Source of the DNA: Candidatus Baldrarchaeota archaeon
Lineage (GTDB): Archaea > Asgardarchaeota > Baldrarchaeia > Baldrarchaeales > DXJG01
Direction of reading: 5' to 3'
Length of the DNA stretch: 32,000 bases
Assembly (NCBI GenBank): GCA_019056805.1
Contig: DXJG01000005.1
Span: 1,419-33,418 of the forward strand
The translations under genes and the position numbers were made by a program. Of the stretch, positions 11,927 through 18,852 are shown one piece after another. Positions within the stretch are counted from its first letter, which is position 1. The number at the start of each line of letters is the position of its first letter. The notes below the pieces were generated by a model. It was not told the origin of the DNA and did not search any database. It was given only the letters and a program-made list of their open reading frames with translations.

Positions 11927-12487
11927 GTGAAAAAAGTAAAAATAACAAATTTAAGGGACATATTTAAACAATTACCAAAAAATTTTATTCTCCTAGTTAT
12001 AAGTTCCGTGGAGAACTATATTTCTGCCAATCTTGAAATTCTGCGAGTTTTGTTAAATGAAATGAAAATTTCTGGAGTTTATATTACAATCAATAGACCT
12101 TATGCCAGTTTATGCAAAATATTAAAACAGAATGGCATCAATATAGAAAAATTGTATTTTATAGATTGTGTTTCAAGTTTAGCTGGAATGCCGGTTGAAA
12201 AAACAGAAAAGTGCCGTTTTCTTAAAGGTCCATCCGCTCTCACAGACATCGGAATAGATCTTAGTGAACTCATGGAAGAAATCAAGAAGCCGTGTTTCCT
12301 ATTTCTAGATTCAATCTCAACTCTATTAACCTATAACAGTGCAGAAGCTGTTGTTTCATTTTCCCATCTGCTAATTACCAAGATGAGACTTAAAGGACTA
12401 ATGGGAGTTATCATCACTTTGGAAAAAGAATCTGAGCCTTATAAAATAATAACCCAATTTTGTGATAAAGTTATAGAGGTGAAATAA
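11927..12487 (+). CDS. KaiC/RecA-superfamily ATPase-like domain with a degenerate P-loop (DUF835/DUF7504-like)
   Basis: SGVYITINRPY, LYFIDCVS, PSALTDI, FLFLDSISTLL.YN and FCDKVIEV are KaiC-like strands. No GxxGxGKT/S. The start is uncertain: the best SD+ATG (11911) is one base out of frame. Confidence 0.75.
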   Translation: MKKVKITNLRDIFKQLPKNFILLVISSVENYISANLEILRVLLNEMKISGVYITINRPYASLCKILKQNGINIEKLYFIDCVSSLAGMPVEKTEKCRFLKGPSALTDIGIDLSELMEEIKKPCFLFLDSISTLLTYNSAEAVVSFSHLLITKMRLKGLMGVIITLEKESEPYKIITQFCDKVIEVK

Positions 12488-12828
12488 TGTCTGAATGGAA
12501 TGAACTAGGAAAGTTGGAAGAGATAAAAGCTCTTCTTGTACTGGATAAGGAAGGAAGAGAAGTCTATTCTAAAATACCCAAGAAATATGAGAAATTGAGA
12601 GAATGGGCTAAAGAATTTAATGAATTGATTAAGAATACGTTCAAGGAATTAAAAGCCGCTTCAAGACAAGTTACTATTGACTATTTTAATGGCAAAATAG
12701 CAATCGTTCGTTGCTTGGAAGAACATGTCATTTTTTTAACCTCAGAATTAATCGATATGGAGAAGTTATGTAAAAAAATTAGAGAGATCGAGATTGCAAA
12801 AAAGATAGAAGATGTATTGAGGCTTTAA
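12487..12828 (+). CDS. Roadblock/LC7 (profilin-like) domain protein
   Basis: 113 aa with helix-ALLVLDKEG-EVYS-helix-QVTIDYFNGKIAIV-HVIFLTS-helix topology. Overlaps the upstream stop (TAATG). Confidence 0.6.
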   Translation: MSEWNELGKLEEIKALLVLDKEGREVYSKIPKKYEKLREWAKEFNELIKNTFKELKAASRQVTIDYFNGKIAIVRCLEEHVIFLTSELIDMEKLCKKIREIEIAKKIEDVLRL

Positions 12829-12829
12829 T

Positions 12830-13174
12830 ATGAGAACGAGATTTAAAAAAAGGATAGAAGATATAGAACCAATGGTAACTGCCTTTTTGCACGTTACAAA
12901 AGATGGAAAAGTACTCGAACAAACAAAATCGGAAAAAGCACCTAAAATCACAGCAAAGTTTCTATCTAATTCCGTAAAACTCGTAGAATTGGCGTGTGAA
13001 CTTAGTTCTGAGTTTAATTTGGGTAGCCTCCAAACAATAAGTATGATGGGGAAAAAAGGAAAACTTGATTTGCATATCCTCCTACATCCCAGCTCACCAG
13101 ATCTTTTTGGTATCATCTTTACTGAAAAGCCAAGCCTTGAGGAAAAAATTAAGAAAGCTTTCAAGGGGTTATAA
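12830..13174 (+). CDS. Roadblock/LC7 (MglB/LAMTOR-like) domain protein
   Basis: 114 aa; VTAFLHVTKDGKVLE and FNLGSLQTISMMGKKGKLDLHIL are characteristic Roadblock strands. Confidence 0.68.
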   Translation: MRTRFKKRIEDIEPMVTAFLHVTKDGKVLEQTKSEKAPKITAKFLSNSVKLVELACELSSEFNLGSLQTISMMGKKGKLDLHILLHPSSPDLFGIIFTEKPSLEEKIKKAFKGL

Positions 13175-13176
13175 AA

Positions 13177-13811
13177 GTGACTCTACTTGAACAATGGCTA
13201 TACTGGACACAAATCGCCTGTATAGTAATGTCAACTGTATTGACAGGGTTCATGGGGTATATATACCTCCTTAAAAGGGACCCCCCATTCTTATATGGGC
13301 TCTTGCTTGGTGTGTTGTTGCTATTAGAATAACTATTGGTTTATTTTTTCCATTCAGCTTTATAAGGGGCTTCATAAATGATTTCCTAACCATAAGTCAT
13401 GACTTGCTCTGGATCTTAGGATTAGCAGTGTTATTAGAAATGGGGAAAAAAGGAAAAGTGTATTTTCCTGTGCTATACCCCTCGACACATTCTATAATAA
13501 GTGCATTATCCTACTTTTACCTCGGTTCCAAAGTGTACGGAGCCATTGAAACCACGATTTTCGCTCATCCCATACTCCTGTTTATACTTTCTTGGTATTT
13601 TCACATATGTGCAAAAGTTACAAAAAACCTTGGTGCAAGAATTATCAGCATATCCTTCCTACTTTGGGCCTTTGACTACATAATATTTGGAATACCATAC
13701 TTTGGAATGGGAATAACAATCGCAGGAGCCATAGGCTGGTCCATCGGCCTTATCTTTAGAGTAACAATTTTCATAGGATTTTTAATGATGACAGTGAGAA
13801 AACAACATTAA
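13177..13811 (+). pseudogene. 7-TM membrane protein (~211 aa if rejoined) split by a 1-nt frameshift at a C6 tract (13281-13286)
   Basis: GTG 13177 (2 nt after the upstream stop) reads MTLLEQWLYWTQIACIVMSTVLTGFMGYIYLLKRDP, then stops at 13330-32. The -1 frame is open from 13275 to 13811 and continues PILIWALAWCVVAIRITIGLFF...LWILGLAVLL into the listed 13404 ORF. Seven hydrophobic segments in total. Confidence 0.8.
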
Positions 13812-14436
13812 TGAAGTTCTGAAAAATAGTGCTTAGATAGGGATCTCTGCGAAACACCCAAAGCAACATTGGAATAGTTGGTCGCAGCTAAATTTAACAT
13901 CAAAATCTTTAACTGTCCATGTCTTTAGGCGATGCAGCTTGGTTTGCCGACGACCTCCTATTCAAAATCGAAGTAGGCGGAAAAATCATGTAGGTACAAT
14001 GCGGAAGATCCGATGTTTTTGAGAAGGATCCAGTAAATGGCTAAATTATACAAGGTTACTTATTTCTTCCATCTACGAAATAATGCTAAAATAATACAAC
14101 TTATTACTTAAATCAATGACAGATCATTCAGAAATTACAGTAGTAACTAGTAAAATTCTTGCGTCATAAGTATAATTAAAAGCACTTTCCAAAATTACTG
14201 GATACTCAAGACTTACCTTAGCTTATATTGCTGTATTTTTCTCCGTTCTCATGACACAATCACCCACACAGATTGAAAGTAGCTATTAAAAAATATAGTA
14301 AAAAAGGTATTTACAAAGTTTTTTGCTTAAAACATGCCAACAAAAATACGATACAATGAAAAATATACAATATAATGAAGATAAATTTAAAAATCGTTAT
14401 TTTATAATATTATAATGAGAAAATAAGATAGAAGAT

Positions 14437-14506
14437 CCCACGGGGGGTGATCGCCATGTGGGTGACACCCCTCGTGACCACATGGAGTGACAGACCACCT
14501 CCATAA
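14437..14506 (+). other. GC-rich structured element containing a 16-codon ORF (14456-14506, MWVTPLVTTWSDRPPP): small RNA or leader/arrest-peptide gene
   Basis: 43/67 GC by hand count within very AT-rich flanks. SD GGGGGGTGAT 14442-51, ATG 14456, TAA 14504-06. TATA-like TTATAATG at 14410-17 and T-tracts at 14511-32. Three overlapping inverted repeats. Confidence 0.6.
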
Positions 14507-14697
14507 AATGTTATTTTGATATCTATTTTTTAAGTAAAAAATACTCCTCATAAAACCGCTTTTCTAGGAATTTCTAATATTAAAATATCAACCGTTGCCT
14601 TGTCTTTTAATTTACATATTGTTATCTATTTCTTTCTGAAATTCTTAAAATGCGTTGATTTTTATATTTCTAGTTTAAAATTAAAAAGTTTGAAGAA

Positions 14698-14813
14698 TGG
14701 AGCCGCCGGCGGGATTTGAACCCGCGACCACCGGATTTCTCGCTTTCGTTACGCATTAAAGTTACGAGTCCGGCGCATTCGGCTATTTTTTCTACCAGCT
14801 GTGCTACGGCGGC
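14698..14813 (-). tRNA. tRNA-Thr(CGT) with two introns (D-arm 22/23, 14 nt, 14791-14778; canonical 37/38, 26 nt, 14762-14737)
   Basis: Acceptor GCCGCCG/CGGCGGC, U73, CCA. The anticodon intron has a perfect BHB (CTCG/CGAG helix, inner CTTT/AAAG). The D intron has helix TGGT/GCCG with 3-nt bulges. Confidence 0.95.
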
Positions 14814-14901
14814 TTTTCCTCGTTTTTTTAAAAAAATAGATAAAACTTAAAGTTTTCGATTGACATTTATAGTAAAAGGACTGGTCATGGTGGTGTTTTG
14901 T

Positions 14902-18546: not shown

Positions 18547-18852
18547 TTATCCGAAGAGTGCTCCTAGTCCACCTACTTCTTCCTCTTCTTCCTCTTCCTT
18601 CTTCTCCTCTTTCTTCTCTTCTTTTACTTCTGCTGGTGCTGCTTCTGCTGGTGCTGGTGCAGCGGCGGCTACTGGTACAGCTGCGGTTTTTATTGCTTCA
18701 TCTATGTTAACTTCTTCTAGGGCTGCAACAATAGCTTTTATTCTTGCTTCATCAATGTTTGCCCCAGCGGCTTCCAATATTTTCTTTAAATTTTCTTCTG
18801 TTATGGGTTTTCCAGCTTTATGGAGAAGCATAGAAGCATATATGTATTCCAA
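18547..18852 (-). CDS. rpl12: Ribosomal stalk protein P1/L12
   Basis: [30 protein letters not shown]...[18 protein letters not shown], Ala-rich hinge, acidic tail GLGALFG. TTG 18852 follows SD GGAGGTGA. Confidence 0.97.

Follow-up and report, generated by a model that had tools for sequence, protein, structure and literature searches.

GC-rich small RNA (sRNA) genes in the AT-rich genomes of Methanocaldococcus and Pyrococcus were reportedly described by Klein, Misulovin and Eddy in 2002 as the Hgc RNAs, and the archaeal C/D and H/ACA guide sRNAs are also small (60–90 nt) and high in GC. Other systems combine RNA structure with a short reading frame: in leader-peptide attenuators of the trpL and hisL type a short ORF lies over hairpins which can pair in two ways and is followed by U-runs, and in the MS2/R17 replicase operator a hairpin holds both the Shine-Dalgarno sequence (SD) and the AUG. 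Ribosomes are stalled by polyproline and Pro-stop contexts, for which eIF5A/aIF5A is needed; known arrest peptides include TnaC, SecM and the RAPP/RAGP peptides, and a Pro-Pro-stop upstream ORF is found in the hCMV gp48 uORF2.

The eukaryotes have their closest known relatives in the Asgard archaea, whose small RNAs are almost unstudied. Within this group, the Baldrarchaeia are inferred to be thermophiles or hyperthermophiles, with growth temperatures estimated as 64 °C based on EF-1A and ~85 °C based on genomic features (PMC10789797, PMC10307638). We analysed a stretch of 32,000 nt from the genome of an uncultivated Candidatus Baldrarchaeota archaeon (contig DXJG01000005.1; the whole stretch is called the window hereafter), in which the original prediction, made from the letters alone, had proposed a GC-rich switch encoding a 16-aa peptide with attenuator-like alternative hairpins. 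Our search of the literature on Asgard sRNAs and archaeal arrest peptides found nothing describing this element. From the analyses below we conclude that the island is probably a real, self-contained small RNA gene on the + strand, with two hairpins maintained by compensatory changes, and that the switch is not upheld.

Structure of the GC-rich island and its flanks

The island (14436–14506) has a GC content of 63% in flanks of ~20% GC, and in 60-nt windows the GC fraction peaked at 0.63 over 14440–14499 versus 0.12–0.25 in the flanks, in good agreement with the ~64% GC predicted originally; the coordinates of hairpins A, B and C and of the 16-codon ORF were likewise all found as given when checked in the window sequence. 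The + strand folded with −37.6 kcal/mol (z = −3.56, with 0/200 shuffles equally good) versus z = −1.18 for the − strand of the island, and both the MFE and the centroid fold contained hairpin A. The stretch at 18580–18700 of the window is also GC-richer but is not an RNA island, being low-complexity coding sequence rich in Ala, Pro, Glu and Lys on the − strand, the translation of which is similar to a ribosomal stalk protein at its C-terminal tail.

Hairpin A spans 14439–14476 on the + strand and has 16 bp, with a 5' arm at 14439–14455, a loop at 14456–14460 and a 3' arm at 14461–14476. Its lower part (14439–14449/14466–14476) consists of 11 bp with one G.U pair (G14443.U14472), and the helix then continues past the bulged A14450 for another five pairs (14451–14455/14461–14465), an extension missed in the original prediction. 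The SD-like run GGGGGGUGAUC (14442–14452, + strand) lies entirely within the 5' arm, and the apical loop AUGUG holds the start codon AUG of the 16-codon ORF MWVTPLVTTWSDRPPP plus TAA (14456–14506, + strand), which is probably incidental to the RNA structure. The variable linker between the hairpins (14477–14481, + strand) reads ACCAC in the window and UUCUU in the same-genus variants, where it pairs with the 5' leader in predicted folds and so lengthens hairpin A. Hairpin C (14482–14504, + strand) pairs AUGGAGUG with CA-C-CUCCAU; its core of ATGGAG (14482–14487) and CTCCAT (14499–14504) is extended across the bulged C14498 by U14488-A14497 and G14489-C14496, leaving the invariant hexaloop ACAGAC (14490–14495). 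The motif GG(G/A)GUGA, which is similar to the SD consensus of the genome, occurs three times in the element (14442–14452, 14459–14466 and 14484–14491) and its complement CACC(C/U)CC twice, giving the arms of hairpins A and C a potential for cross-pairing, and this recurrence suggests that the two hairpins may have a common origin or a common binding motif.

With regard to the flanks, the TATA-like box and the downstream T-tracts of the original prediction are both present. A conserved AT-rich block upstream (14373–14430, + strand) is a putative archaeal promoter and contains the TATA-like box TTTATAATATTATAA (14401–14415, + strand), of which the AATATAA-TATA motif aligns in all variants and sits ~25–30 nt before the base of hairpin A at the homologous loci; the usual −26 spacing would place the transcription start at ~14434–14439 on the + strand. 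Downstream there are two U-tracts on the + strand (14511–14531, with the tracts proper at 14514–14517 and 14526–14531), which may function as archaeal terminators, and each homologue has a U4–5 tract 8–16 nt past hairpin C followed by a second U5–6 tract ~12 nt further on. Some MFE folds also join the purine-rich leader to the U-rich tail in a terminal helix, which was rejected because it is A/U-rich, inconsistent among the variants and may lie outside the transcript.

Homologues and genomic context

Five further sequence variants were found in related metagenome-assembled genomes (MAGs) and metagenomes, giving six distinct variants together with that of the window. The copies in a MAG of the same genus (G001) and in Ca. 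Baldrarchaeum yapensis (G004), which belongs to the other family of the class Baldrarchaeia, were detected by BLAST and a first covariance model (R1), and scanning metagenome and genome collections for a strict pattern of two motifs contributed L039/L041, L043 and L045; five of the ten strict matches in metagenomes were chance matches (L035, L037, L040, L042 and L044). Model R1 gave no match at E ≤ 0.1 in 146 other Asgard genomes, and the DNA contigs of four sequencing runs contained variants of the same-genus type only. A search for RNA sequencing runs containing the element listed none. As far as the sequences searched can tell, the element is known so far only from the Baldrarchaeia. Model R1 also gave no match in G002 and G003, two MAGs of the same genus, but with a completeness of 82–84% this does not imply absence from these organisms; G003 has a relative of the tRNA-Thr gene described below in a different context. 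One of the homologous loci (G151, L045/L048, record JAVCBU010000001.1) belongs to a MAG titled 'Thermoproteota archaeon isolate Kor1', yet it has a Baldrarchaeia-type element, with the element, tRNA-Thr and thiL in the same order as in the window and ~75–76% nucleotide identity to it, and either the MAG is wrongly labelled or the contig has been mis-binned. The element is single-copy in the genome of the window according to the covariance-model search, where blastn-short searches for paralogues or targets gave only chance matches of 11–13 nt and no extended complementarity, and the sole other GC-rich GTGACAGAC site in that genome is on the antisense strand of a tRNA gene.

When the window was compared with five homologous loci using BLAST, conservation began at 14359–14373 and ended at 14510–14533, an interval comprising the island with ~65 nt on its upstream side and the first U-tracts on the other; the remaining spacer was not conserved, and similarity returned at tRNA-Thr and thiL. 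The conserved block in all variants thus consists of the AT-rich TATA-like region, the island and the two U-tracts. The tRNA-Thr gene (anticodon CGU, 14701–14813, − strand) is the antisense neighbour downstream, and thiL (identified by TIGR01379, 251 bits) begins at 14887, which confirms both neighbours named in the original prediction and its caveat that no sense gene follows directly (tRNA-Thr being antisense and thiL ~400 nt away). In Ca. Baldrarchaeum yapensis the neighbours are unrelated, with a convergent PaREP1/HEPN ORF as the next gene downstream, and no downstream same-strand gene is conserved across both families. Because conservation covers the TATA-like block, island and U-tracts only, and because the neighbours differ in Ca. 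Baldrarchaeum yapensis, we conclude that the element is an independent small gene with a predicted length of ~80–95 nt, so that the stand-alone unit, raised originally as a caveat only, has become the favoured reading.

The tRNA-Thr gene of the window has two inserts, one of 16 nt in the D arm and one of 28 nt after the anticodon, and was matched by Rfam with 47 bits while being missed by ARAGORN; a tRNA-Thr gene with different insert sequences adjoins thiL in G001 and G151. On contig C9 of the same genome (G000), ARAGORN in intron mode reported a 103-nt 'tRNA-SeC (tca)' and two 'tRNA-Stop (tta)', which may be false positives. Upstream of the element, a tRNA gene is only ~250–520 nt away in G001 and L041, and in the window tRNA-Leu is separated from the element by a four-gene module (11927–13811) and a 620-nt unconserved spacer. 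This module looks like an insertion in the genome of the window, since no counterpart of its four proteins was detected by tblastn close to the element at the other loci; Pfam searches with the neighbouring upstream genes gave nothing useful.

Evolutionary support for the two hairpins

The variants were compared in a structure-aware alignment of seven rows (A9), built with model R2. In this alignment, which was fitted to the structure and holds only six distinct variants, five of them closely related, the two-hairpin fold has 96.0% of 198 cells paired (95.8% for hairpin A and 96.4% for hairpin C), compared with 37–54% when the partners were slid by 1–3 columns. Four pairs were altered on both sides, all in hairpin A (A-U/U-A/C-G; U-A/G-C/G.U; C-G/U-A; G-C/U-A), and the covariation score of 0.246, against a shuffled mean of 0.163, was reached by 1/500 shuffles. 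The stems of A and C were therefore kept among the collected homologues, and these two hairpins of the original prediction are real in the sense of being evolutionarily maintained. The register of hairpin A shifts between lineages, with only a bulged A in the window, 16 uninterrupted pairs in Ca. Baldrarchaeum yapensis, and, in the folds predicted for the same-genus variants, an additional bulged G or small internal loop and 21–24 pairs, and we take this to mean that the helix itself is what is selected. Within hairpin C, position 14486/14500 is A-U in the window, G-C in G001 and G.U in four rows, and GUGACAGACC is invariant in all variants, although it was fixed in the search pattern that retrieved L039, L041, L043 and L045.

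The 16-codon reading frame

The near-perfect SD of the original prediction is spaced as in the real genes of this genome: among 882 long ORFs, GGAGG peaked at −13/−12 and GGTGA at −11/−10, and in the element GGGGG is located at −13 and GGTGA at −10 relative to the AUG, the latter on the genome-wide peak. The run GGGGGGUGAUC can form ~11 contiguous pairs with the 16S 3' end GGAUCACCUCCU as read in Ca. Baldrarchaeum yapensis, which was used because searches for 16S rRNA (RF01959) gave no match in the MAG of the window or in G001. The reading frame is also conserved, a point on which the original prediction could have failed: all six variants share the AUG, the frame and WGDRPPP. Five of them also have the stop codon, with TGA in place of TAA in Ca. 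Baldrarchaeum yapensis, but in L045/G151 TAA has become CAA, and the frame of G151 runs for 61 codons and across the U-tracts. Three of the four variable columns within the last seven codons are third positions, and the Pro codons vary at third positions only (CCA/CCG, CCT/CCC/CCA and CCA/CCG).

Weighing the alternative explanations

The ORF could thus belong to a micro-protein or dual-function mRNA, translated once hairpin A has been opened co-transcriptionally or by a helicase or other factor, and a ribosome stalling at RPPP-stop might then let the unit report translation capacity (aIF5A or polyamine state). The well-placed SD-like run is in favour of this, as are the AUG staying invariant while the other two loop bases of hairpin A change in Ca. 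Baldrarchaeum yapensis, the invariant WGDRPPP with its synonymous Pro-codon changes and TAA/TGA swap, and the general tendency of such Pro-rich ends to stall ribosomes, but we nevertheless consider it unlikely. The SD is base-paired in both predicted folds, either within hairpin A or with the 3' arm of hairpin C, and would stay sequestered because the GC-rich 16-bp stem of hairpin A is predicted to remain folded at 90 °C (−6.4 kcal/mol), above the temperatures inferred for growth. Variation shows no codon periodicity, with 7, 8 and 7 variable columns at the first, second and third codon position, and residues 2–9 are not conserved but vary radically: the L-to-H and V-to-E changes each represent the 3' half of a compensated pair in hairpin A, and the change from TT to FL falls in the linker, a segment paired with the leader in those lineages. 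The bases encoding WGDRPPP coincide with the invariant top of hairpin C, nearly all 'synonymous' Pro changes there are also wobble-compatible or compensated (U-A to U.G, or the partner of position 14486), the exception being CCT>CCA in Ca. Baldrarchaeum yapensis which leaves a G.A mismatch, and the unpaired synonymous loop sites (GAC, AGA) never vary, a pattern not accounted for by coding alone. In G151 the stop has been lost, and the element has no downstream gene to regulate. Coding constraint explains only the last seven codons, whereas RNA-level constraint accounts for nearly every substitution, with paired columns keeping their pairing and the others lying in the unpaired linker; the exceptions are the 3' half of the loop, the L045 stop-codon base and the said G.A mismatch. 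We therefore regard the 16-codon frame, including the caged SD and AUG, as most likely a by-product of constraints on the RNA sequence. A more elaborate version, a self-contained translational sensor in which the caged SD and AUG and a stall of WGDRPPP-stop on hairpin C are followed by a 5'A:3'C switch or recruitment of a partner, in response to aIF5A, polyamines or temperature, appears very improbable to us; if true, it would be the first archaeal arrest-peptide device, acting without a downstream cistron, just as the simpler minority reading of a translated ORF would, if right, give a first handle on peptide-mediated ribosome arrest in archaea.

The switch itself depends on hairpin B, whose halves CCATGTGG (14454–14461) and CCACATGG (14478–14485) form a perfect 8 bp in the window. 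As a cis-acting leader or attenuator, the element would set read-through towards thiL by alternating between hairpins A and C on the one hand and hairpin B plus a helix joining the 5' arm of A to the 3' arm of C on the other, the latter pairing being what ViennaRNA gives when hairpin B is enforced. This alternative fold has 90.9% of cells paired, compared with 36–62% in slid controls, one pair of hairpin B is changed on both sides (G-C to C-G in Ca. Baldrarchaeum yapensis), and thiL lies on the same strand ~380–480 nt downstream in the window, G001, L041 and G151. However, 379/500 shuffles of the seven rows equal that pairing, which we therefore attribute to invariant columns, so that there is no covariation signal for the alternative fold; in six of the seven rows hairpin B is imperfect, with an internal mismatch and two G.U pairs, and with hairpin B enforced the best fold is 12.8–27.7 kcal/mol worse than A plus C in all seven rows, while hairpin A would be the first to form during transcription. 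The opposite-strand tRNA-Thr intervenes before thiL in the window, G001, G151 and L041, thiL is preceded by its own conserved TATA-like block, and in Ca. Baldrarchaeum yapensis a convergent gene and not thiL comes after the element, leaving no regulated gene to follow it; moreover, a terminator hairpin is, to our knowledge, not part of archaeal termination (cf. PMC8716108). This reading is thus highly improbable, and the switch or attenuator logic of the original prediction did not hold. Another possibility, that the locus acts as DNA or has no function, for example as a protein-binding inverted repeat or the relic of a mobile element, has a low probability in our estimate. Hairpin A is a long inverted repeat, with GGTGATCACC in G001 a perfect DNA palindrome, and an element that is single-copy, limited to a small clade and without a match in G002 and G003 would fit such an origin, but the non-Watson-Crick pairs in the core of hairpin A are all G.U on the + strand, without A.C cells, and would be A.C mismatches on the other strand, which argues for + strand RNA and not a DNA palindrome. 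The strand-asymmetric fold, the invariance of hairpin C and its loop, the conservation of promoter-like and terminator-like flanks alongside, and the lack of repeats or paralogues, unlike a MITE, also speak against a DNA-level role.

A candidate RNA family and its relation to known systems

The reading we prefer, and consider probable, is that of a stand-alone, structured non-coding sRNA of ~80–95 nt from the + strand, representing a so far undescribed family restricted to the Baldrarchaeia, of which we infer the transcript, strand and ends from sequence. Such an RNA would be transcribed from its own TATA-type promoter and end at the tandem U-tracts, as the conserved sequences suggest, and would fold into two adjacent GC-rich hairpins which, judging from covariation and in silico folding, should be stable at growth temperature. 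Constraint beyond pairing appears to act on the nearly invariant upper half of hairpin A (GGGGGUG.UC.CC AUG .. GGUG.C) and on the invariant top of hairpin C (GUG-ACAGAC-CAC), two surfaces which would thus be likely recognition sites for a protein or RNA partner, and the U-rich 3' end is a plausible site for an Sm-like protein. This makes the element a clean candidate for a new class-restricted RNA family, with a predicted promoter, ends and fold and two invariant surfaces which can be directly synthesised and probed. It also serves as a caution that a seemingly ideal array of SD, AUG, ORF, PPP and stop can be produced, or at least explained, by constraint on RNA structure.

The Rfam search proposed together with the original prediction matched no known RNA family to the island: in Rfam 15 only the neighbouring tRNA reached its gathering threshold, and even at E ≤ 10 the island overlapped only chance matches (snoU30, ceN101, SQ2397, EF0605_EF0606 and HOTTIP_4) of 13–16 bits, compared with thresholds of 45–219; ARAGORN found nothing on the island. 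Box C/D sRNA was rejected, as GUGAUC and GUGAC motifs are present but no UGAUGA or CUGA, and so was box H/ACA sRNA, as hairpin A is continuous with only 1-nt bulges or a small internal loop and there is neither a pocket nor a 3' ACA. No GA.AG arrangement fits a k-turn or k-loop on inspection, and readings as a BHB intron, split-tRNA half or tRNA-like structure were ruled out by inspecting sequence and folds. The likeness of the loop ACAGAC to the ACAGAGA box of U6 extends over only 5–6 nt, with the wrong order of elements and no supporting context, and was rejected.

Comparison with the systems described at the outset places the element as follows. Like the leader-peptide attenuators it has a short ORF over hairpins with two possible pairings, followed by U-runs, but its two folds are 13–28 kcal/mol apart, its unit includes no structural gene, its U-run is set apart from the hairpin and the host is an archaeon. 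With arrest peptides and Pro-Pro-stop uORFs it shares a short frame in which Trp and Asp are conserved and the stop is preceded by Arg-Pro-Pro-Pro; in contrast to these its frame is a predicted one, it has no regulated downstream cistron and it has lost the stop in one lineage, and its conserved codons coincide with a conserved RNA hairpin. The MS2/R17 operator resembles it in having the start codon at or near an apical loop and the SD in the stem, although the stem of the element is far longer and more stable and neither a binding protein nor a downstream gene is known for it. Size, high GC and an archaeal host are shared with the C/D and H/ACA guide sRNAs, but the element has no RUGAUGA/CUGA pair, pseudouridylation pocket, k-turn or 3' ACA after the lower stem, and its snoRNA matches in Rfam reach just 14–15 bits (E 7–10). 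As with the Hgc RNAs, of which HgcC, HgcE, HgcF and HgcG do not match it in sequence or structure (Rfam, E ≤ 10), the locus has the marks of an sRNA gene, with a GC island between promoter-like and U-tract flanks and with compensatory and wobble changes in the seven rows of the model-fitted alignment. While it differs from them in coming from another phylum (Asgard) and in its overlay of SD, AUG and ORF, it is like the Hgc RNAs in being a small GC island in an AT-rich thermophile, with a putative promoter of its own, a predicted oligo-U end and a stable, conserved fold.
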